Part shown: one piece after another, positions 49,764 through 64,000 of the stretch
Position numbering within the stretch: position 1 is the stretch's first letter
Layout of the letters: every line of letters starts with the position of its first letter
Assembly: GCA_964531455.1 (NCBI GenBank)
Contig: CAZHFZ010000009.1
Location: forward strand, 7,414-71,413
Source: an uncultured Bordetella sp.
GTDB lineage: Bacteria > Pseudomonadota > Gammaproteobacteria > Burkholderiales > SG8-41
DNA length: 64,000 nucleotides
Direction: 5' to 3'
Notes under the pieces: model-generated
Told to the model about the DNA's origin: nothing
Databases searched by the model: none
The model's input: only the letters and a program-made list of their open reading frames with translations
Position numbers and translations under genes: made by a program

Positions 49764-50093
49764 AAGTGAAGCTGGCCGTTAAGCCGGGTTCTGTCGTGGA
49801 CAGCCATTCCTCTGGGCCGCACATCACTGTGCGGCTCTAGCCACCTACCCGCAAGCTCGGCGGGACGCGTCAACGCTTGCCTATTCGGTGTTGCTCCGGG
49901 TGGAGGTTACCGCGTTTCACCCCGCAAACCTTGCGGCTTGCGGACTCGTCTCTGTGGCCCTATTCCTCGCCTCACGGCGGACGGGCGTTACCCGTCACCC
50001 TACCCTGTGGAGCCCGGACTTTCCTCTATGCACGGCACGTAAGGGTTGCCCCTTACGGTTTGTTCCGCACACAGCGGCTGCCTGGCCAGCTTC
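49764..50093 (-). ncRNA. rnpB: RNase P RNA (bacterial type A)
   Basis: The reverse complement starts GAAGCTGGCCAGGCAGCCGC, contains GAGGAAAGTCCGGGCTCCACAGGG, and ends ACAGAACCCGGCTTAACGGCCAGCTTCACTT, colinear with E. coli rnpB P1/P4 elements. The ends are approximate (plus or minus a few nt). Confidence 0.9.
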
Positions 50094-55410: not shown

Positions 55411-55854
55411 TTAATGGGGCGTCTTCAGACGCCCCATTCGTTTGAACCAGCGCAACAGGGCGCCAATCAGCGGCAGCTTTTCATACAGTTCCTCCGCCGC
55501 ATCCCAATAGTCCCGGTGCTCGCTCACCAGCCCGGCGGCATTGAAGGTGATCAGGCTTGAGCCATGTATGCGCTGAGTCACCTGCGGACGCCAGCTGCGA
55601 AAGCGGAACTCGAAATCCCAGGTCAGCAGCACTTGATCACCTTCAGCAACGCGATCTTTAACAATGAATCGCGGCGACTCGAGGGTATCGAACATGTGCG
55701 TGAATATCGCTGCGAGAGCCGCGGTGCCGCGCACATCGTTGAACGGATCACGGAAGTGGCAGTCGGCCGCGTAATACCGCGACAGATCGCTGACCGACTG
55801 CCGCGTCAGCGTTTCAAAATAGACCGCCAGTGCATCCACCTGCTGACGCTTCAT
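55411..55854 (-). CDS. NTF2/SnoaL-like fold protein
   Basis: From Met25: MKRQQVDALAVYFETLT ... YYAADCHFRDPFNDVRG is typical of SnoaL-like polyketide-cyclase-fold proteins. The ATG overlaps the upstream TGA (ATGA). Confidence 0.65.
   Translation of the reverse strand: MKRQQVDALAVYFETLTRQSVSDLSRYYAADCHFRDPFNDVRGTAALAAIFTHMFDTLESPRFIVKDRVAEGDQVLLTWDFEFRFRSWRPQVTQRIHGSSLITFNAAGLVSEHRDYWDAAEELYEKLPLIGALLRWFKRMGRLKTPH
55413..55438. terminator. Bidirectional stem-loop between convergent BON-domain and SnoaL-like genes
   Basis: Perfect 11-bp stem aatggggcgtc (55413-55423) / gacgccccatt (55428-55438) with loop ttca. It overlaps the last codons of the minus-strand gene and has T-rich flanks on the minus strand. 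Confidence 0.55.
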
Positions 55855-56627
55855 AATCGCGTTGCCTTGTGCACCAGTGCAAAATACCAGCGATATGGCA
55901 GCAGGCGCAGAAGCTTCAGCCACCAAGTGAATCGTTTCGGAAAATGAATCTCGAAATCACCACGGGAAAAGCCTGAAATGATCGCCTCTGCCGCAGCCTC
56001 GACACTGATCAGCGCCGGCATCGCAAAGGTGTTGAGATCGGTCAGCGGCGTTTTGACGAAACCCGGGTTGATCACATAGACCCCGATGCCCCGCGGCGCA
56101 AGATCCAGATAAAGCGTCTCTGCAAGGTTGATCAGCGCAGCCTTGCTCGCGCCGTACACCAGCGCCGTAGGCAAACCACCGTAGCCAGCAACACTGGACA
56201 CCACGGCAACACCACCACTGCCCTGCTGCAAAAGCTGCCGGATCACCGGCGGCAGGCAATTGATGACACCGTTGACATTGACGTCAAGCAAACGACGGGC
56301 TGACGCCGCTTCCAGTTCCCAGGCCCTTACCGGTTGGTGGCTGCCCGAACACAATACGACGAGATCCACTCCGCCCCACGCCGAGACCACGCGTTGCAGT
56401 GCCGGACCCGGAGCGCCACCGTCGGTGACATCCATTGGCAGCACCAGTGCCTGTGATCCGTGCGAGGAGGCCAGATGCTCGAGTTCAGCGGTACGTCGCG
56501 CCGATACCGCAACGCGTGCGCCACGGGCCAGCAATGCAGTCGCCAATCCTGCACCGATGCCACTGGATGCGCCAACGACCCATACACGCATTCCGTGCCA
56601 GTCGCGTATGGCCCGGTTCAGACTCAT
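55851..56627 (-). CDS. Short-chain dehydrogenase/reductase (SDR)
   Basis: VWVVGASSGIGAGLA (TGxxxGxG-type) and YGASKAAL (YxxxK). Confidence 0.85.
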   Translation of the reverse strand: MSLNRAIRDWHGMRVWVVGASSGIGAGLATALLARGARVAVSARRTAELEHLASSHGSQALVLPMDVTDGGAPGPALQRVVSAWGGVDLVVLCSGSHQPVRAWELEAASARRLLDVNVNGVINCLPPVIRQLLQQGSGGVAVVSSVAGYGGLPTALVYGASKAALINLAETLYLDLAPRGIGVYVINPGFVKTPLTDLNTFAMPALISVEAAAEAIISGFSRGDFEIHFPKRFTWWLKLLRLLPYRWYFALVHKATRL

Positions 56628-57154
56628 GAACGCTTGCGGAAGGTCAGGATCACCTCACCGAGCCGCACACCGAACTTGCTCATCACCGACCGGTTGAGCA
56701 TCACCTGATCATCCATCAAATACATCCAGTCGTCGAAATCGACATCCCAGCTGCGGCCATCGACATCCAGCCGAAGCACGTATTGCCAGCGCAACGCGTT
56801 GCCGTGAAGTTCGCCGATAGCCTCGCCCACCACGTCATCCGCAGTGCCGCGGAAACGATGCTGATCAAGCCGCTGCAGCGTCCATACCCGACGGCTTTTC
56901 GTACCGTCAGAATACTCGAAGTGCTCATCAAGGGTGCCAGTATCACCCGACCACCGGGCATCGATACGCACGCTGAAGCGTTTCACGACCTTGCCGTTTC
57001 GGTCCTGGAAAATACCCCATGCATCAATGGTTCCGTTGAAATACTGCTGCAGGTCAAGCACCGGCCGCTCATCGCGATAGTAATCCACCGGCACCGAGCC
57101 GCACCCGGCCAGCATGAGTACGGCGGCAACAAGCAGGGACTTAAATCTGTTCAT
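56624..57154 (-). CDS. DUF3833-family lipoprotein
   Basis: The lipobox is VLMLAGCGS. LDLQQYFNGTIDAWGIFQDRNGKVVKRF matches my recollection of the DUF3833 pattern. 4-nt overlaps on both sides. Confidence 0.6.
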   Translation of the reverse strand: MNRFKSLLVAAVLMLAGCGSVPVDYYRDERPVLDLQQYFNGTIDAWGIFQDRNGKVVKRFSVRIDARWSGDTGTLDEHFEYSDGTKSRRVWTLQRLDQHRFRGTADDVVGEAIGELHGNALRWQYVLRLDVDGRSWDVDFDDWMYLMDDQVMLNRSVMSKFGVRLGEVILTFRKRS

Positions 57155-58449
57155 GGTGCATCTCCCGTAAATGACGCTGGCCGGCGCAATGTGTCAGACA
57201 CCGTAATCCATAAAAGCAATGCCGCCAACAATTTGATTACACACGGCAGCAGCGCATAAACGACAGACAGCGCAGAGCCGGCGGCAGCCGGCGTGCCGGG
57301 TGAATACCCAAGCCATTGCAGCAGCGGCAAGGTAATACCGGCTGCCAAAGCAAGGGCCAGCTTTTCCAGCAGATGCCACATTCCGAAATACAAACCATCA
57401 GGACGGGCGGCACGATCCTCATCGCCGTCAATCACATCCGCCAGCAATGAGGCGGGCAGCGCAAGATCGGCACCAAAAGCCAGGCCTGAAAGAACGCACA
57501 CCACCGAAAAGGCCGCAGCATCGCCAGCACCCAGAAAAAAAGCCCAGACAAATGCTCCGGCAGCGAACGCCATTGAGACCAGCCACGCCCGCACCTTGCC
57601 GATACTGGCGGCAAGGTGCACCCATAGAGGCATGCCGGCAGCGCCGGCCACGAAATACAAGACCAGAAACAGCGGCGTCAGATCAGGCCGCTGCAGCACA
57701 TCCGCAGCAAAAAACAGCAGTAACGTCGCCGGCATGGCCGCCGCAACGCCATTGATCAGAAACACCGCCGCGAGCTTGCGGAACCGCGGATTACGCAGCG
57801 GCTGCATCAGCTCCGCCCAGGTCAGCGGCGCGGATACCAAGGAAGCAGGCGGGGATGGTCCCCGAAGCAGTGTGATCGCCGCCGCGACAGCCAGCACCGG
57901 AGTGAATCCGAGTGCGAACAATGCAAGACCCTCGGTCGCACCATACTGCTGCACCAGCAGTTCCGGCGCCGCTGCAGCCAGCAGCACACCTGCCAGCGCG
58001 GCCACGCCGCGCGCGGCGGTAATACGCGTGCGCTCCGAATAATCCCGCGACAGCGCACTGCCCAGCGCAAAATGGCCGATACTTGCCGCACTCAATCCAA
58101 GGTAGCTGAGAACAAGCGTCGCGGTCAGCCACAAGGCCAGCGAGTCCGTATCGGTCGGCGGGCTGAACAGCAGCCACAGTCCTGCGGCAAGAAAAGGCGC
58201 AGCGCCGCCGATCATCAGCTTGCGGCCGCCATATCGAACCGGAATGCGGTCGGCAAAGGCCCCAAGCAATGGGTCGCTGATCGCATCAAGCAGGCGCACC
58301 GCCAGCAGTATGAAACCGATCAGCGCGAGGTCCATGCCGAGTGCCGCGTAAAACTTGGGCACCTGCACATGCACCGGCAAGGCAGCCGCCGCCAGCGGCA
58401 ACGCAACTGCCGCATAGGCGGCCAGCGCGGATTTAGTCAGCGCGGCCAT
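57151..58449 (-). CDS. MFS transporter (glycoside-pentoside-hexuronide / folate-biopterin-like)
   Basis: About 12 predicted TM helices, with an RIPVRYGGRK loop after TM2. The preferred start is Met32 (ATG 58449). Confidence 0.75.
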   Translation of the reverse strand: MAALTKSALAAYAAVALPLAAAALPVHVQVPKFYAALGMDLALIGFILLAVRLLDAISDPLLGAFADRIPVRYGGRKLMIGGAAPFLAAGLWLLFSPPTDTDSLALWLTATLVLSYLGLSAASIGHFALGSALSRDYSERTRITAARGVAALAGVLLAAAAPELLVQQYGATEGLALFALGFTPVLAVAAAITLLRGPSPPASLVSAPLTWAELMQPLRNPRFRKLAAVFLINGVAAAMPATLLLFFAADVLQRPDLTPLFLVLYFVAGAAGMPLWVHLAASIGKVRAWLVSMAFAAGAFVWAFFLGAGDAAAFSVVCVLSGLAFGADLALPASLLADVIDGDEDRAARPDGLYFGMWHLLEKLALALAAGITLPLLQWLGYSPGTPAAAGSALSVVYALLPCVIKLLAALLLWITVSDTLRRPASFTGDAP

Positions 58450-58978
58450 CGCCGCCGAGCAATGCAGCGCGCAATTCCGGTTTCTGCGTGCGAGGATCAA
58501 GCCAGATATCGAAAAAACGCCGCGCAAATTCCGGGTCTTCAATATTGCCCAGCGAAGCCGTGGCGGAATAAAAATGTACGCCGCGCTGCGGCCGGTATAC
58601 GCCGATCAGACGGCTGCCTGACTGCACATCTGGAAACGTGCGCCGCATCGCGGCGTCCCAGCGGGCCAGCTTCGATTCATCGTTGACACCCAGCCGGCGC
58701 ATCTCGTCAATACTGGTTCCAGCCAACTGAGCCGTTGTGATGTTTCGGGCGTAGATGATATCGAGCACATAGGGCGCATCGGCACGCCAGCGACCGTCAC
58801 GGGACCACAGTGCGACGTCATAGACGTGGAATCCCCACCAGCGCAGACGTCCCTTGCCGACCATGCGGCAGGTTTCCATGGCACTGCATACCGCCGGCGG
58901 CAGCTCCGCCGGCACATTCACCGCCGCGACCGGGCCTGTGCAGAGCAATGCCAGAATGCCGAAGATTGTTTTACGCAT
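58433..58978 (-). CDS. Chalcone isomerase-like family protein, secreted
   Basis: Signal peptide MRKTIFGILALLCTGPVAA. GKGRLRWWGFHVYDVALW and FFDIWLDPRT ... LRAALLG resemble the chalcone-isomerase-like (fatty-acid-binding) fold family. Confidence 0.55.
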   Translation of the reverse strand: MRKTIFGILALLCTGPVAAVNVPAELPPAVCSAMETCRMVGKGRLRWWGFHVYDVALWSRDGRWRADAPYVLDIIYARNITTAQLAGTSIDEMRRLGVNDESKLARWDAAMRRTFPDVQSGSRLIGVYRPQRGVHFYSATASLGNIEDPEFARRFFDIWLDPRTQKPELRAALLGGDGRAD

Positions 58979-60182
58979 GCTCCAGAACAGCCTGCACTAC
59001 ATCAGTTGCACGGGAGCGGAAGCCGGCCTCGCAATAAGCAAGATAAAAACGCCATGTCCGCATGAATCTCTCGTCAAAACCCTGCGCCTTCACGTCGGTC
59101 TCCACGCAATCAAACACCTGGTGCCAGCGGCGCAGCGTCTCGGCGTAGTCCTGTCCGAACGGGTGCATGTGCTTCACTGCCAGTCCGCAACCGGACGCTT
59201 CCCCGGTGAAACGTTGCGGCGATGGCAGCATGCCGCCGGGAAAAATATACTGTTGAATAAAGTCGGTGCCTTTGCGGTAACGCTCGAACTTGGCTTCGGC
59301 AATGGTGATTGTCTGCACCACAGCGCGCCCACCGGGCTTGAGGCGGTCACGCAACATGCCGAAATACCCGGACCAGTAACGCTCACCGACCGCCTCGAAC
59401 ATCTCGATCGACACTACATGGTCAAAATGCCCGTCGAGATCACGGTAATCCTGCAACTTCAACTCCACGCGGTCCTGCAATCCGGCGGCAGCAATCCGGC
59501 GCTGCGCGTACTCGAGCTGCGCCGCGGAAATGGTAATGCCGGTCACCCGGCAGCCGGCACGCGCGGCATGCTCGGCAAACCCGCCCCAGCCGCAGCCAAC
59601 CTCGAGAATATGCTGGCCGGGCTGCGCATCCAGTTCGCGCAGAATACGGGCGTACTTTGCAGATTGCGCATCAGCAAGGCTGCGCGTGAGATCACCCTCG
59701 AACAACGCTGACGAATAAGTCATCGTCGAATCCAGCCACAGCCGGTAAAAATCGTTGCCAAGATCATAGTGGGCATGAATGTTTTTCCTGCTGCCGGCCC
59801 GTGTGTTGGGCCGCAGCCAGTGGCGTAAGCGGTAAACCATGGTTGCCCACCAGCGGCCATGGATCGCCTCCTCAATCGCCTTTTCGTTCATTGCCGCGAG
59901 CAGCAATAACTGCGTCAGATCTTCCGTAGCGACGCGACCTGCGATGTAGGCTTCAGCCAGGCCGATGTCCCCCCGGCTGAGAATGTCGCTGCAAACCTGC
60001 CAGTCAGCCAGGGTCAAAGTTGCGTGCGGGCCGGTTTGCGCACCGGAGAACTCAAGGGACCTCCCGTCAGGGCAGGTCAGCGTCATTTTTCCGCAGCGCA
60101 ATTGCGCCAGCAGGCGGAACAGCCAGCGGGCGGCTGCAGGTTCTGCGCTCATCGGCGAACGTTGTACAAATGTGCTGATCAT
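58971..60182 (-). CDS. SAM-dependent methyltransferase, cyclopropane-fatty-acyl-phospholipid synthase family (UfaM-like)
   Basis: HYDLGNDFYRLWLDSTMTYSSALF and the SAM motif ILEVGCGWGGFAEHAAR. The start at Met38 overlaps the upstream TGA (ATGA). Confidence 0.85.
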   Translation of the reverse strand: MISTFVQRSPMSAEPAAARWLFRLLAQLRCGKMTLTCPDGRSLEFSGAQTGPHATLTLADWQVCSDILSRGDIGLAEAYIAGRVATEDLTQLLLLAAMNEKAIEEAIHGRWWATMVYRLRHWLRPNTRAGSRKNIHAHYDLGNDFYRLWLDSTMTYSSALFEGDLTRSLADAQSAKYARILRELDAQPGQHILEVGCGWGGFAEHAARAGCRVTGITISAAQLEYAQRRIAAAGLQDRVELKLQDYRDLDGHFDHVVSIEMFEAVGERYWSGYFGMLRDRLKPGGRAVVQTITIAEAKFERYRKGTDFIQQYIFPGGMLPSPQRFTGEASGCGLAVKHMHPFGQDYAETLRRWHQVFDCVETDVKAQGFDERFMRTWRFYLAYCEAGFRSRATDVVQAVLEHA

Positions 60183-60952
60183 CTCGTGGTGTCCTCCGCA
60201 GGAGCCGGGGGTTTTGAAAAAAACGGTACGCGCTTCAGCCACAGCCGGAGCGCGTGATAGTGAATACGCAACATCACACCCAGCGTCATCCACGGGTAAC
60301 GGAAAAACGCGCGTAGCAAAGCACCCGTGGTCGCCGGCTGTGCGACGCCACTGACACTGGTCGTGAGTTGGTGGCCCTGGCCGTCGTCATAATCGATCCG
60401 GAACACACAACGGCCGGTGTGATCGGCAAAACGGAACCGGTACTCTCCGGTAACGGGGAAAAAGGGTGAAACATGAAAAACCTTGCGCGCCGTCAGCCAG
60501 TCGCCAGCCCTGATCGGCCGTGCATCGGCATGCGACACCAGATAGTTATGGCGCTCGCCGAAAGTATTGCTGACTTCAGCAAGTACGGCGCGCAATGCAC
60601 CGCTGCGATCGTGGCACAGCCAGAAACTCACCGGATTGAACACATAACCCAACACCCGCGGAAAAGACTGCAGCCAGATGGCGCCATCCGCACAGGCCAG
60701 ACCATGGCTGGCAAGCAGTTCGCGAATCCACGGCTCCAGCGCACTGCCGTCGCGGGGACCATGATCAGCATCGTTAAAACCGAAAAGATTCCAGCCATTG
60801 CGCGAGCACAGTGCAGGAAATGCCGGCGGTGCGCCGTCAATGCGCAAACGCATGAAAAACACGCCGTAACGGAAAGCATGCAGCGCCGGCGCAAGGCGGC
60901 GATGCAGGACATCTCCGAAATAAAGGCGCAAGCCTGAAACGGCATCGCTCAT
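60179..60952 (-). CDS. DUF1365-family protein (UfaO-like)
   Basis: From Met13: LYFGDVLHRRLAPALHAFRYGVFFMRL is the DUF1365 N-terminal signature. ATGA overlaps on both sides. Confidence 0.75.
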   Translation of the reverse strand: MSDAVSGLRLYFGDVLHRRLAPALHAFRYGVFFMRLRIDGAPPAFPALCSRNGWNLFGFNDADHGPRDGSALEPWIRELLASHGLACADGAIWLQSFPRVLGYVFNPVSFWLCHDRSGALRAVLAEVSNTFGERHNYLVSHADARPIRAGDWLTARKVFHVSPFFPVTGEYRFRFADHTGRCVFRIDYDDGQGHQLTTSVSGVAQPATTGALLRAFFRYPWMTLGVMLRIHYHALRLWLKRVPFFSKPPAPAEDTTR

Positions 60953-62259
60953 GCTGCTGCCTTCAATCCTTCGGGCTGCGCCAGCCACGGCACCGTCACA
61001 TTAAAAGCTTGAGCAACCGCAATGCCTGCCTTGAGCCCGTCCTCGTGAAAACCATAGCCGGTCCAGGCCCCGCAATACCAGGTGTTGTGTCGCCCCTGAA
61101 GACCGGGCAACCGCGCCTGCGCGGCGATGCTGCCCAGATCAAACACCGGATGGGCATAGCGGTAGCTGTCGATCAGGCACTCCGGGCGCGGCGGATGTGC
61201 AGGATTCAGCGTTACGATGACCGGCCGGGCAAACGGCAGCGGTTGCAGTTTGTTGATCAGGTAACTGACCCCCACCGGCCGACCGGCATCGGTTTCGCGA
61301 TCGGCGTGATAGTTCCAGGCTGACCACGCCGAACGCCGGCGCGGCAGAAAGCTTTCGTCGGTATGCAGCACGACTTCGTTGTCCTGATAACCAATGGCGC
61401 CAAGAACCCGGCGCTCTGCGGCATCCGCATCACCGAGCAGTCGCAGTGCCTGGTCACTGTGGCAGGCCATGACCACTGCATCAAAATGCTCTGCCGCATG
61501 TCCCATACAGTGCAAAGTTGCGCCGCGAGGGTCGCGAACGACCTGCTGCACCGGCATGTTGATCCGGATATCGGGAATGTCCGCAGCCAGTTTTTCAACA
61601 TACCTTTTCGCGCCGCCGTTCACCGTGCGCCACTTCGGCCGGTCGCTGACCTGAAGCAGGCCGTGGTTGGCACAGAACGTGAAAAACGTCCGCGCCGGAT
61701 ACTGCAACATTGCGGCCGTCGGACAGGACCAGATCGCGCCAGCCATCGGCAGCAGATACCAGTCGCGGAATGCCCGGCCATAACCGCCCTTATCAAGGAA
61801 TTCACCCAGGGACTGCACAGAGTCGACTGGTTGCTGCGCCAACGCGGTGGCTTCCTTGTTGAAACGCAGGATATCCCCGAGCATGCCCCAGAACGCAGGG
61901 AGCAGCAGATTGCGGCGTTGCGCAAACACGGTTGACAGGTTACTGCCCGCCCACTCCAGGCGTTCAGCCGCCAGCCGTACCGAAAACGACATGTCGCTGG
62001 CCGTGGACTCCACATCAAGGTGGTCAAACAGCGCGATCAGATTCGGATAGGTGCGCTCATTGAATACCAGGAACCCGGTATCCACCGGCGCGGTGATGCC
62101 GTCGAGAGTGACATCAACAGTATGCGTATGACCACCCAGATAATCGTTTGCCTCAAGCAGCGTAACCGTATGGGTGCGCGACAACAGCCATGCCGCCGAC
62201 AGCCCGGCAATGCCGGAACCGACGACAGCGATGCGTTTGCCGCGTTGCTCTTTTTTCAC
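60949..62259 (-). CDS. NAD(P)/FAD-dependent oxidoreductase, amine-oxidase / phytoene-desaturase-like (UfaD-like)
   Basis: KRIAVVGSGIAGLSAAWLL ... LLEANDYLGGHTHT is the dinucleotide fold plus GG motif. 436 aa. Confidence 0.85.
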   Translation of the reverse strand: MKKEQRGKRIAVVGSGIAGLSAAWLLSRTHTVTLLEANDYLGGHTHTVDVTLDGITAPVDTGFLVFNERTYPNLIALFDHLDVESTASDMSFSVRLAAERLEWAGSNLSTVFAQRRNLLLPAFWGMLGDILRFNKEATALAQQPVDSVQSLGEFLDKGGYGRAFRDWYLLPMAGAIWSCPTAAMLQYPARTFFTFCANHGLLQVSDRPKWRTVNGGAKRYVEKLAADIPDIRINMPVQQVVRDPRGATLHCMGHAAEHFDAVVMACHSDQALRLLGDADAAERRVLGAIGYQDNEVVLHTDESFLPRRRSAWSAWNYHADRETDAGRPVGVSYLINKLQPLPFARPVIVTLNPAHPPRPECLIDSYRYAHPVFDLGSIAAQARLPGLQGRHNTWYCGAWTGYGFHEDGLKAGIAVAQAFNVTVPWLAQPEGLKAAA

Positions 62260-62267
62260 GGCAGTGT

Positions 62268-63062
62268 TTATTTGACGCGTTCGACCAGTGCGTAGGCCGA
62301 GTGGTTGTGTATGGACTCGAAGTTCTCGGCTTCGACCTTGTAACTGCGCACGCGCTGGTCGGCGTCGAGGCGCAGCGCAATGTCACGCACCAGATCCTCG
62401 ACAAATTTCGGATTGTCGTAGGCGCGTTCGGTGACGTATTTCTCGTCAGGCCGCTTGAGCAGGCCATACACTTCGCATGAGGCCTCCTGTTCGGCTATGC
62501 CCGCGATTTCCTCGATCGTCAGCGTGGCGTCGGCCTGCACGGTGATGGTGATATGCGAACGCTGGTTGTGCGCGCCGTATTCGGAAATCTCCTTCGAACA
62601 CGGGCACAGGCTGGTAGCCGGTGCCGAAACCTGGGTGGTGAAGACCGTGCCGGCGGCAGTGCGCTCGCCGCGCAGCATCACCTTGTAATCAAGCAGGCTG
62701 GACACGCCGGACACCGGTGCGCGTTTGCTGATGAAATACGGAAAACGCATCTCGATCATGCCGGTATCGGCGTCGAGACGTTTGATCATCCGCGACAGCA
62801 ACCCGGCAAAGCCGGCAGCATCCAGCGCGTCATCATGCTGCTGCAGCACTTCAACAAATCGGGACATGTGGGTGCCTTTGACCTCGGGCGGAAGTCCCAC
62901 GGTCATGTCGACGGTTGCAACGCTTGAGACCACACCACCATTGGCGCTTGCAATCCGCACCGGGTGAACCAGCGATTTCACGCCAACATGATTGATGTAG
63001 ATGTTGCGACGGTCGGTGATGGCCTGAACATCAGGCAAAAGCCATTGATCGGGGGCGTTCAT
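62268..63062 (-). CDS. folE2: GTP cyclohydrolase FolE2 (type IB)
   Basis: LPDVQ ... INHVGVKSLVHPV ... VKGTHMSRF ... SLCPCSKEISEYGAHNQRS are FolE2/MptA family motifs. Confidence 0.9.
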   Translation of the reverse strand: MNAPDQWLLPDVQAITDRRNIYINHVGVKSLVHPVRIASANGGVVSSVATVDMTVGLPPEVKGTHMSRFVEVLQQHDDALDAAGFAGLLSRMIKRLDADTGMIEMRFPYFISKRAPVSGVSSLLDYKVMLRGERTAAGTVFTTQVSAPATSLCPCSKEISEYGAHNQRSHITITVQADATLTIEEIAGIAEQEASCEVYGLLKRPDEKYVTERAYDNPKFVEDLVRDIALRLDADQRVRSYKVEAENFESIHNHSAYALVERVK

Positions 63063-63102
63063 AAAATCTCCTGTTGGGGAATTGGCGCGACAGTCAGTGA
63101 AG

Positions 63103-63273
63103 ATTGGGACAATTGTTTACCAGCGATACGCAAAATTTGCGGGCTTGGTAAATCATCATGCAACATTGGGACGCGTTGACTTTGTCCAATGTTTGTCCAA
63201 TAATAACCTAGTCAAAGATACATAAAACTCCTTTAAATTCCCATTTTCAACCGACAAAACTCCTATTTGTCCA
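63103..63273. promoter_or_regulatory. Five copies of a GTCC(C)AAT-type motif in the folE2 / carH-like divergent intergenic region (candidate operator set)
   Basis: The minus-oriented copies are GTCCCAAT at 63110-63103 and 63172-63165. The plus-oriented copies are TTTGTCCAAT at 63181-63190 and 63192-63201. A partial copy TTTGTCCA lies at 63266-63273. Confidence 0.45.
63176..63204 (+). promoter_or_regulatory. Candidate sigma70 promoter of the carH/litR-like gene, with the tandem motif filling the spacer
   Basis: TTGACT (63176-63181), a 17-nt spacer, then AATAAT (63199-63204). This is 76 nt upstream of ATG 63280. Sequence match only. Confidence 0.35.
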
Positions 63274-63279
63274 TGACAG

Positions 63280-64000
63280 ATGATTAATGCCTCCGCAAAC
63301 CCCCGGGATACCACCGAAGCCAGCTACAACATAGCAGCGGTCGAGCGGGATACCGGCCTGTCAAAGGACACTCTGCGGGTATGGGAACGCCGCTACGGTT
63401 TTCCCAAACCACTGCGCGACCAGCACGACGAACGCCTGTATTCGCTGCCCGAACTGGAAAAATTGCGGCTGTTGCGCCTGCTGATCGATTACGGTCACCG
63501 TCCAGGCAAAATCATCAATCGCAGCATATCAGAACTGACACAGCTGATTTCCTCGCGTGCGCCTGAGCAGACGCCTCCGCCGGAAATTGACGCCATTCTG
63601 GGCCTGCTATTGAGTCACGATGTCGACGGCTTTCGAAACGCCCTGATGCAGGCATTGATGAAACAGGGGCTGCTTCGATTCGTAACAGATACGGTAACTG
63701 CCTTGAATCACTGGATCGGCGACGCCTGGCTGGCGGGCCGGGTTGCGATTTTTGACGAGCACTTGTACTCGGAACACATCCAGAACATCCTGCGCAACGC
63801 AATCATCGCGCAACCCGGCCGCGGCATGACGCCGCGGGTATTGCTGACCTCCCTGCCTGGCGAAAAACACCGCATCGGCCTGCTGATGGTTGAGGCCGTG
63901 CTGACGGCAGAGGGCGCCGCCTGCGTTGCGCTCGGCACGGAAACGCCGGTGATCGACATCAAAAACGCGACGCCGGCTTACCAGGTCGACGTCGTTGCAT
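63280..64000 (+). CDS. MerR-family regulator with cobalamin-binding domain (CarH/LitR-type light-responsive repressor); 3' end outside window
   Basis: Not in the ORF track (no stop in window). My translation from ATG 63280 is YNIAAVERDTGLSKDTLRVWERRYGFPKP (MerR HTH) ... WLAGRVAIFDEH (Wx9EH, 63727-63762) ... GEKHRIG (ExHxxG, 63862-63879) ... ALGTE. Confidence 0.8.
   Translation, partial: MINASANPRDTTEASYNIAAVERDTGLSKDTLRVWERRYGFPKPLRDQHDERLYSLPELEKLRLLRLLIDYGHRPGKIINRSISELTQLISSRAPEQTPPPEIDAILGLLLSHDVDGFRNALMQALMKQGLLRFVTDTVTALNHWIGDAWLAGRVAIFDEHLYSEHIQNILRNAIIAQPGRGMTPRVLLTSLPGEKHRIGLLMVEAVLTAEGAACVALGTETPVIDIKNATPAYQVDVVA

Follow-up and report, generated by a model that had tools for sequence, protein, structure and literature searches.

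The subject of this report is a nine-gene operon and the divergent gene of a B12-type regulator of the LitR/CarH family, located towards one end of a 64,000-nucleotide stretch of DNA from an uncultured Bordetella sp. (assembly GCA_964531455.1, contig CAZHFZ010000009.1, positions 7,414 to 71,413). This whole stretch is called the window below, and positions are counted from its first letter.

Gene organization of the operon

Nine open reading frames follow one another on the minus strand, from 63062 to 55411. Family profile searches returned for all nine the domains and the order that a first reading of the letters (the original prediction) had proposed. Start codons were picked from the upstream context and from agreement with independent gene calls on identical contigs. 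The genes are listed in the order of transcription.

62268..63062, minus strand: folE2, GTP cyclohydrolase IB, 264 amino acids (PF02649, 307 bits), with an AGGAG ribosome-binding site upstream
60949..62259, minus strand: ufaD-like FAD-dependent fatty-acyl desaturase candidate, 436 amino acids, GTG start (Amino_oxidase and NAD_binding_8)
60179..60952, minus strand: ufaO-like DUF1365 protein, 257 amino acids (PF07103, 268 bits, full length)
58971..60182, minus strand: CFA-synthase-family S-adenosylmethionine (SAM) methylase, ufaM candidate, 403 amino acids (PF02353, 284 bits)
58433..58978, minus strand: secreted protein of the chalcone-isomerase (CHI) fold, 181 amino acids, with an N-terminal signal peptide (PF16036, Chalcone_3, 36 bits)
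57151..58449, minus strand: MFS_2-family transporter, 432 amino acids (PF13347, 220 bits)
56624..57154, minus strand: DUF3833 lipoprotein, 176 amino acids, lipobox LAGC (PF12915, 237 bits)
55851..56627, minus strand: short-chain dehydrogenase/reductase (SDR), 258 amino acids (adh_short, 144 bits)
55411..55854, minus strand: SnoaL/NTF2-fold protein, 147 amino acids (SnoaL_2, 59.7 bits)

The start codons are at 63062, 62259 (GTG), 60952, 60182, 58978, 58449, 57154, 56627 and 55854, and the last stop codon of the operon occupies 55411-55413. The eight junctions comprise one gap of 8 nt, five overlaps of the ATGA type, one 8-nt overlap (ATGCGTAA) and one 17-nt overlap. The gap and the two longer overlaps had been described correctly; only four ATGA overlaps had been counted, with the consequence that seven junctions were accounted for. 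Inside the operon, the promoter and terminator scan found 11 terminator-like sites, 11.4 being expected from shuffled sequence, and the GC content across the region is unremarkable. As judged from this layout, the nine genes are one tightly coupled unit and a real operon. The first product, FolE2, scores 275.5 bits against the NCBIfam equivalog NF010200, above the cut-off of 215, and covers positions 1-260 of the 260 of the PF02649 profile.

A candidate furan fatty acid core

The second, third and fourth genes of the operon have counterparts of established function. In Rhodobacter sphaeroides, RSP1091 (UfaD, the FAD enzyme) and RSP1090 (UfaO, the DUF1365 protein) are necessary and sufficient for the conversion of 11Me-12t-18:1 into 9M5-FuFA via a diene intermediate, and the substrates of both enzymes are phospholipid acyl chains (PMC7380195). 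Rhodopseudomonas palustris has ufaD, ufaO and ufaM side by side in this order (RPA2571-2569), and these three genes are enough for the entire pathway from vaccenate; the UfaO proteins of these two species are the only DUF1365 proteins that have been characterised (PMC7380195).

In the window, the same three gene types are found in the same order, joined by ATGA overlaps. The DUF1365 protein matches PF07103 with E = 6.9e-80, covering positions 1-234 of the 235 in the profile. Among solved structures, LkcE comes closest to the FAD enzyme (E = 3e-52). The gene of the FAD enzyme lies directly upstream of the DUF1365 gene, with an ATGA overlap, a position and a coupling that are those of RSP1091 and RPA2571. 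This pairing is kept in all related loci, as well as in alpha- and gammaproteobacterial clusters. The third enzyme, the CFA-like methylase, is a two-domain relative of the CFA synthases 5Z9O (E = 4e-56) and 6BQC and occupies the position of R. palustris ufaM, RPA2569. It remains under every NCBIfam cut-off for a Cfa equivalog, and NCBIfam has no UfaM model. In R. sphaeroides, the CFA-like gene found at this third position, RSP1089, is dispensable for furan fatty acids, the true UfaM being encoded elsewhere (PMC7380195). Hence, position makes the window methylase a UfaM candidate and is not proof of that function. Considering family, order and coupling together, the FAD oxidoreductase, the DUF1365 protein and the CFA-like methylase appear to match UfaD-UfaO-UfaM. 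The original prediction rightly stated that subsets of this gene set belong to the sigmaE-ChrR regulon of Rhodobacter, but the furan fatty acid function of the core (PMC7380195) had escaped it.

A class I LitR and its own operon

Divergent from folE2 lies the regulatory gene:

63280..64000, plus strand: litR/carH, N-terminal 240 of 309 codons, running past the window end (Pfam MerR_1, B12-binding_2 and B12-binding)

The full sequence of 309 amino acids, taken from identical metagenome contigs, consists of a MerR-type DNA-binding domain, a four-helix bundle and a Rossmann B12-binding domain. Its alignment with the CarH protein of T. thermophilus (5C8D, E = 7.5e-27) extends over the full length. 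In the recognition helix, the motif RxWERRY is present as RVWERRY, and LRVWERRYGF aligns to the same stretch of 5C8D. In CarH, the Wx9EH motif of the four-helix bundle contacts the upper adenosyl ligand, and the Rossmann domain carries the cobalamin motif D/ExHx2G/P-x41-SxT/V-x22-27-GG (PMC9304148). The first of these is WLAGRVAIFDEH in the window protein, aligned to WHRGEIGVAEEH of 5C8D. The second reads EKHRIG (ExHxxG, within GEKHRIG), 41 residues, SFS (with Ser for Thr/Val), 26 residues and GGGG; the corresponding Pfam B12-binding match, at 30.7 bits, is slightly below the cut-off of 32.1 bits. RxWERRY, Wx9EH and ExHxxG are kept in 53/53 LitR homologues encoded beside the module and also in the Azoarcus protein. 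The alignment with 5C8D and these motifs thus bear out the original claim of a divergent CarH/LitR-type regulator, with B12-binding motifs, and its sequence features are those of a class I CarH/LitR in the classification of Takano.

The two other classes were considered. A class II LitR, of the Pseudomonas type, is excluded by the presence of the full Rossmann B12 domain with its His ligand; the class II hallmarks were searched for as well, and there is no TGTACA in the intergenic sequence and no LOV gene in the neighbourhood. Nor is the regulator of the class III type of Burkholderia. Burkholderia multivorans possesses such a class III LitR, which does not use B12 (PMC9758184).

litR is the first gene of an operon of its own that continues past the window end (L001:343-3875, minus strand in L001). 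The second gene encodes a CryB/(6-4) photolyase homologue of 508 amino acids, a member of the FeS-BCP family (PF04244; 3ZXS, E = 3.5e-159). The next product is a diiron protein of 305 amino acids with weak similarity to fatty-acid (acyl-acyl carrier protein, acyl-ACP) desaturases and to AurF; it is 70-93% identical in relatives, above most proteins of the operon. A nucleotidyltransferase-like gene (Pfam CTP_transf_like) then follows on the litR strand.

The intergenic control region

The region between folE2 and litR is 217 bp long (63063-63279) and contains the following elements.

63176..63204, plus strand: predicted litR sigma-70 promoter TTGACT-17-AATAAT, 10/12 consensus positions, both hexamers kept in 21 relatives
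63181..63201: two tandem 11-bp direct repeats, TTTGTCCAATG and TTTGTCCAATA, within the spacer of the litR promoter, kept in relatives
63266..63279: site A, inverted repeat TTTGTC-CAT-GACA, putative LitR operator abutting the litR start codon, kept in 21/21 aligned close relatives
63243..63238 (-35, TGGGAA) and 63220..63215 (-10, TATCTT), minus strand: predicted operon promoter with a 17-nt spacer, placed by homology of position
63162..63172 and 63100-63110: half-site-like copies AACATTGGGAC and AAGATTGGGAC, in opposite orientation to the tandem repeats, pattern A(A/C)(G/A)ATTGGGAC

On the operon strand the tandem repeats read TTATTGGACAA and ACATTGGACAA, and both fit the CarH repeat nnnnTnnACAn. 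CarH operators are made of three or four such tandem 11-bp repeats overlapping the -35 or the -10 element, and some of the characterised ones combine two true repeats with pseudo-repeats (PMC9304148). In the window, the two perfect tandem repeats are flanked by 11-mers that do not match, and a TnnACA-containing inverted repeat, site A, is present further on, at 63266-63279. When all loci are considered, TGTC-N3-GACA occurs 67 times in the 14.7 kb of the litR-operon intergenic zone, versus 36 times in the remaining 939 kb, which corresponds to an approximately 119-fold enrichment. Site A contains a third copy of the half-site, and all three copies of TTTGTCCA in the 64-kb window lie within 93 bp of this region; the counts of TTTGTCCA and of TGTC-N3-GACA across the window are not above chance, and it is the clustering alone that deserves attention. 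Comparison of 21 close relatives delineates conserved blocks in an otherwise variable intergenic sequence, namely the promoter hexamers, the repeats, the inverted repeat, ATGGGAAT and GTATCTTTGAC. The half-site-like copies at 63100-63110 and 63162-63172 are lineage-specific and not kept in these relatives; the latter forms with the first tandem repeat an 8-bp inverted repeat (AACATTGG, 16 nt, CCAATGTT).

The position of the operon promoter can be approached from the Rhodocyclales relatives, including Azoarcus sp. KH32C, where the intergenic region contains an inverted repeat TTTGTCC-N-GACAAA, the hexamers TTGACA-17-TATCTT directed toward the operon, a second inverted repeat TTTGTCTAGGACAAA and a ribosome-binding site. 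On the basis of this position and of the blocks ATGGGAAT and GTATCTTTGAC, TGGGAA-17-TATCTT is likely to be the operon promoter of the window. It would start transcription near 63208 on the minus strand, the predicted litR start being near 63211 on the plus strand, give rise to a 5′ untranslated region of about 145 nt and place the tandem repeats at about +7 to +27. By analogy with Rhodocyclales, we infer that the tandem repeats of the window take the place of the second inverted repeat just downstream of the operon start.

Other types of control were also looked for. No sigmaE-type promoter (TGATC-N15-20-CGTA/TAAG) was found in the intergenic region, even with a relaxed form of the motif, and the genes called within 20 kb include neither a sigma factor gene nor a ChrR gene. 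Rfam detected no riboswitch or leader RNA in the 5′ region of about 145 nt, the sole match in the window being RNase P. A minus-strand open reading frame of 35 amino acids (63059-63166), which shares 4 nt with the start of folE2, is proposed by some gene callers. It was rejected as a leader peptide because neither its sequence nor its length is kept among relatives.

Apart from the intergenic sites, an operator-like sequence, TTTGTCCAGGACA, is observed about 426 nt inside the litR coding sequence, where it encodes FVQDT, in loci L049, L052, L053, L057, L062, L066, L069, L073, L076-L078 and L085. The TTT codon of FVQDT is identical in 18/18 GC-rich sequences and flanking synonymous sites vary, which hints at a possible third LitR site. 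The litR gene of the window itself (FVTDT) has no such intragenic site.

Conservation of the module across relatives

Related loci from 80 species were collected and scored with the proteins of the window. The eight genes after folE2 have the same order in 54 of the 56 loci that span both ends, an arrangement far beyond chance. Loci with the conserved module include Thauera, Azoarcus, Dechloromonas, Azonexus, Accumulibacter, Methyloversatilis and Oxalobacteraceae, and the complete eight-gene module is annotated on the megaplasmid of the cultured Azoarcus sp. KH32C, with a divergent MerR-family gene. A divergent LitR is encoded beside the module in 53/59 loci; the module occurs without an adjoining LitR in six Oxalobacteraceae loci. 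Contigs encoding an identical DUF3833 protein came from the ENA, Logan and JGI metagenome assemblies, and the closest genomes are those of uncultured Burkholderiales, several being metagenome-assembled genomes with isolate names starting with 'ME'.

The head of the operon is its variable part. folE2 itself is facultative in that place: of the 53 loci having a divergent LitR, 28 possess it. In many Rhodocyclales and Oxalobacteraceae, a gene for a putative secreted glutathione peroxidase is found at the operon head, instead of or besides folE2, which fits a lipid-peroxide theme. At L052:3597-4169, L078:2901-3470, L082:4057-4641 and similar places, the family was assigned by eye from the sequence.

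Corresponding clusters exist in gammaproteobacteria. In Vibrio cholerae (VC1118-VC1122), Salinivibrio and Pseudoalteromonas, NTF2, SDR, FAD oxidoreductase, DUF1365, CFA-like, CHI-family and DUF3833 genes are gathered in one cluster, as in the window. These clusters differ from that of the window in that the NTF2 and SDR genes stand at the head, the set also comprises phrB and genes of the DUF523/DUF1722 and DUF2878 families, MFS and folE2 genes are missing, and the regulators are either sigmaE-ChrR, as in Pseudoalteromonas, or a MerR-family protein. The gene between DUF2878 and DUF3833 is of the chalcone-isomerase family in Pseudoalteromonas and is annotated as hypothetical in Salinivibrio. 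Blue light strongly raises the expression of the CFA-like gene VC1122 of V. cholerae, and VC1118 responds to it as well. The regulator of the Vibrio cluster presumably has no B12-binding domain.

More distant variants keep parts of the set. The plasmid of Cupriavidus sp. USMAHM13 (L088, NZ_CP017753 174036-192788) encodes a TetR-family regulator, the FAD oxidoreductase, DUF1365 and a chalcone-isomerase-family protein, together with a lipocalin replacing DUF3833, DUF2878, two CFA-family proteins, DUF1295 and a cryptochrome/photolyase beside the excinuclease Cho. On a Rhodobacterales plasmid (Qingshengfaniella), sigmaE-ChrR genes are divergent from FAD, DUF1365 and MFS genes. NTF2-family genes are found in the corresponding clusters of Azoarcus, Pseudoalteromonas and Salinivibrio. 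The window had been thought to extend a Rhodobacter-like module with the lipoprotein and two small-fold proteins. This idea has to be abandoned, since NTF2/SnoaL, SDR, CHI and DUF3833 proteins accompany the core in gammaproteobacteria; across proteobacteria, the UfaD/UfaO pair is as a rule accompanied by the lipoprotein and the small-fold proteins.

The companion proteins

AlphaFold models of companion proteins were built on homologue alignments. The DUF3833 model (pLDDT 91) is a 10-stranded beta-barrel, and the lipobox cysteine, Cys18, is invariant in the homologue alignment. The barrel resembles ligand-binding barrels of the calycin type, that is nitrobindin/THAP4 (TM 0.64-0.68), the FABP-like Ycf58, nitrophorins and lipocalins; these matches are modest, with E values of 1e-4 to 1e-2 and TM up to 0.68. 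For the CHI-like protein (pLDDT 88.5), the Foldseek matches include CHI and CHIL and, among the best, AtFAP1, a fatty-acid-binding protein of Arabidopsis (4DOO, E = 3e-7, TM 0.65). The nearest solved sequences to the MFS transporter are those of the lysophospholipid symporter MFSD2A (5e-13, 6e-11), ahead of the sugar carrier MelB (7e-6). Sequence searches of the PDB gave no match for the CHI-like, DUF3833, DUF1365 and diiron proteins and a marginal one for the SnoaL protein (E = 0.057). The SDR has counterparts in RSP1087-1091 and in the gammaproteobacterial clusters.

These similarities and the Cupriavidus lipocalin suggest, as a lead only, that binding or transport of a hydrophobic ligand in the envelope accompanies the lipid-modifying core. 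It is tempting to go further and to imagine that the CHI-fold, MFS, DUF3833, SDR and NTF2 proteins form an unrecognised, light-switched route for handling envelope lipids. In such a scheme, a (lyso)lipid that carries a furan or has been photo-oxidised would be flipped through the inner membrane by the MFS protein. Both binding proteins of the periplasm would ferry it to or from the outer membrane, and repair or processing of the oxidised product would fall to the two cytoplasmic enzymes. This extended scheme is unlikely to be right as a whole; if true, it would assign a function to several DUFs and tie B12 photoreception to membrane lipid traffic.

A model for light control and its alternatives

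Considered together, the gene content points to photo-oxidative stress, and the following sequence of events may be proposed. In the dark, LitR/CarH with bound adenosylcobalamin would sit on the shared intergenic region, at the tandem repeats and site A, and block both overlapping divergent promoters. In the light, the Co-C bond of the cofactor would break and the repressor would leave the DNA, allowing transcription of two units. One is composed of litR, the CryB/(6-4) photolyase gene and the diiron-protein gene, and the other is the nine-gene operon. As homology and gene order would have it, the UfaD-like, UfaO-like and CFA-family enzymes would then convert phospholipid vaccenate chains into methylated furan fatty acids scavenging singlet oxygen or radicals. 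FolE2 would raise the pterin/folate supply in the light. Finally, in the least supported step, the companion proteins would bind, move or process modified or oxidised lipid in the envelope. On the sequence data, this account of a light-derepressed envelope-protection operon, placed under a B12-type LitR and making furan fatty acids, is probably correct, with appreciable room for doubt.

Several points weigh against it. Members of the FeS-BCP photolyase family use a lumazine antenna and not folate, which would weaken the simplest rationale for folE2. Canonical direct repeats number two in the window, against three or four in the characterised CarH operators. The operon promoter is a weak consensus match, was not called by the consensus scan and has been placed by analogy. 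The CFA-like gene could match the dispensable RSP1089 instead of UfaM. In R. sphaeroides, deletion of RSP1087-1089 left the fatty acid profile unchanged (PMC7380195). Thus, the companions may serve something besides furan fatty acid synthesis.

One may wonder whether the regulator really governs the nine genes. LitR might regulate no more than its own gene and the CryB/photolyase unit. The nine genes would then answer another signal, for instance singlet oxygen through an extracytoplasmic function (ECF) sigma factor encoded elsewhere, which is the situation in Rhodobacter and Vibrio. In Pseudoalteromonas, Qingshengfaniella and R. sphaeroides, sigmaE-ChrR indeed governs this gene set, the operon's own promoter resembles the sigma-70 consensus poorly, and the six Oxalobacteraceae loci show that the module can exist without an adjoining LitR. 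However, the intergenic region is devoid of even a relaxed sigmaE motif and neither a sigma factor nor ChrR is encoded within 20 kb, the LitR-divergent pairing is kept in 53/59 loci and, in Rhodocyclales, the second operator copy is located between a clear operon promoter and the ribosome-binding site. Separate control of the two units is therefore quite unlikely.

The nature of the product may also be questioned. The lipid would not be a furan if the CFA-like enzyme produced a methyl-branched or cyclopropane chain and if, in this lineage, the homologues of UfaD and UfaO catalysed another oxidation. The CFA-like protein is below all Cfa equivalog cut-offs, its specificity cannot be read from its sequence, and RSP1089, a CFA-like gene located at the corresponding place in its operon, is not needed for furan fatty acids. 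The authors of PMC7380195 also consider that DUF1365 may have other oxidation roles. Set against this, the exact order ufaD-ufaO-methylase is sufficient for 9M5-FuFA in R. palustris, and in the light-induced cluster of Pseudomonas that corresponds to this one, the orthologue is regarded as ufaM (PMC9758184). A product other than a furan fatty acid thus seems unlikely. A more radical departure would be a cluster that makes and exports a small secondary metabolite, pigment or signal, with the SnoaL, CHI-fold, LkcE-like and SDR proteins and the methylase acting on a polyketide-like substrate and the MFS protein as exporter. LkcE, to which the FAD enzyme is most closely related among solved proteins, is a lankacidin enzyme, and the SnoaL and CHI folds are known from polyketide and flavonoid pathways. 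Yet no polyketide synthase, non-ribosomal peptide synthetase or other scaffold-forming gene is present in or near the operon, photolyases, ChrR and LitR are the constant partners of the set across proteobacteria, the substrates of UfaD and UfaO are acyl chains of phospholipids, and the CHI-fold protein and DUF3833 carry export signals, all of which makes a metabolite cluster very improbable.

Comparison with known light- and singlet-oxygen-responsive systems

The closest functional parallel is found in Pseudomonas, where a class II LitR and LOV proteins induce phrB, ufaM, folE and neighbouring genes in the light (PMC9758184). In the pplR1/pmlR1 cluster of Pseudomonas putida and P. mendocina, which has a class II LitR and short LOV proteins, a LitR/CarH-family repressor controls, as is predicted for the window, a nine-gene, translationally coupled, light-induced polycistron; it contains SDR, FAD oxidoreductase, ufaM and hypothetical genes, one of them probably DUF1365, folE being light-induced as well (PMC9758184). 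The module under a LitR-family light regulator is therefore no novelty. Even the operator layout is comparable: on P. mendocina P6650, the footprint of the class II PmlR2 comprises a Site 1 overlapping the -35 element and a Site 2 between the start site and the ATG, although the site sequence is different (PMC9758184). The two systems differ in several respects. The Pseudomonas regulators have the four-helix bundle alone and sense light via LOV proteins, their site is TGTACA-N12-TGTACA, phrB is in the cluster and folE belongs to a separate folM-folE-folX operon (PMC9758184). In the window, the B12-binding module is complete, the sites are based on TTTGTC/GGACAAA, the operon begins with folE2 (type IB), and the gene of the photolyase family belongs to the litR operon.

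In R. sphaeroides (RSP1091-1087 and ufaM) and R. palustris (RPA2571-2568), the desaturase-DUF1365-methylase order, the SDR and small proteins and the membership of a singlet-oxygen regulon are in common with what is seen or proposed here (PMC7380195). The differences are the sigmaE-ChrR control, an operon without folE2, and MFS, CHI-fold and DUF3833 proteins that are unreported there (PMC7380195).

The class I CarH proteins of T. thermophilus, M. xanthus and B. megaterium, whose mechanism is established, resemble the window regulator by their domain order and motifs, by tandem 11-bp TnnACA repeats over a promoter, of which the window has two canonical ones and an inverted repeat, and by a divergent target operon, a predicted one in the window. 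The characterised members found described all control carotenoid genes, whereas the predicted target in the window is a fatty-acid-modification and pterin operon; no carotenoid gene occurs in the 20 kb read around the locus. The window operon would thus be a non-carotenoid target. In Burkholderia multivorans, folE2 and a cfa-like gene are reportedly light-induced.

From these comparisons, the locus joins two known parts, a class I CarH and a furan fatty acid/photo-oxidative cluster, in a combination that, as read from genome sequences, is widespread in Betaproteobacteria, cultured strains included. No experimental description of this combination was found in the literature, a weak negative because most subscription journals were outside the search. 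A third type of sensor thus appears before the same protective genes, after sigmaE-ChrR for singlet oxygen and LOV proteins with class II LitR for blue light, namely a complete B12-type CarH. The pairing of CarH with the module appears in many freshwater and wastewater Betaproteobacteria, among which Azoarcus sp. KH32C and Dechloromonas agitata DSM 13637 are tractable strains. Current understanding is not overturned, and such a locus would be expected by a specialist. The role of the constantly associated CHI-fold, DUF3833, SDR and NTF2 proteins, a question that extends to Rhodobacter and is not specific to this locus, is narrowed down by it.

The 3′ end of the operon and its downstream neighbours

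Two features mark the end of the operon.

55413-55438, minus strand: terminal stem-loop, 11-bp stem and UGAA loop, overlapping the operon stop codon
54809-55375, plus strand: convergent BON-domain lipoprotein gene, ending 35 nt from the operon stop codon

In a 75-nt context the stem-loop folds at -25.3 kcal/mol (z = -4.95), and 0/200 shuffles were as good. Relatives have a hairpin at the same position with the stem altered on both sides, for example AUGGGGCGUC, CAAGGGCGUC and CAAGCGCGCC. These compensatory changes speak for a functional RNA structure and against a coding accident. The strong stem-loop of the original prediction is therefore real. It was not called by the simple terminator scan because the T-rich tract is a few bases off instead of adjoining the stem. 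The hairpin is probably a terminator or a 3′ stabiliser shared with the convergent BON-domain gene; standing between the two, it could terminate both transcripts.

Beyond the BON-domain gene come housekeeping genes, the RNase P RNA and a cell-division cluster starting with mraZ, rsmH and ftsL. The RNase P RNA, of class A (249 bits), is located at 49764-50093 on the minus strand, between a ChaC-like gene and mraZ; a conserved operator-like sequence at 49792, TGTCGTGGACA, is part of this RNA.

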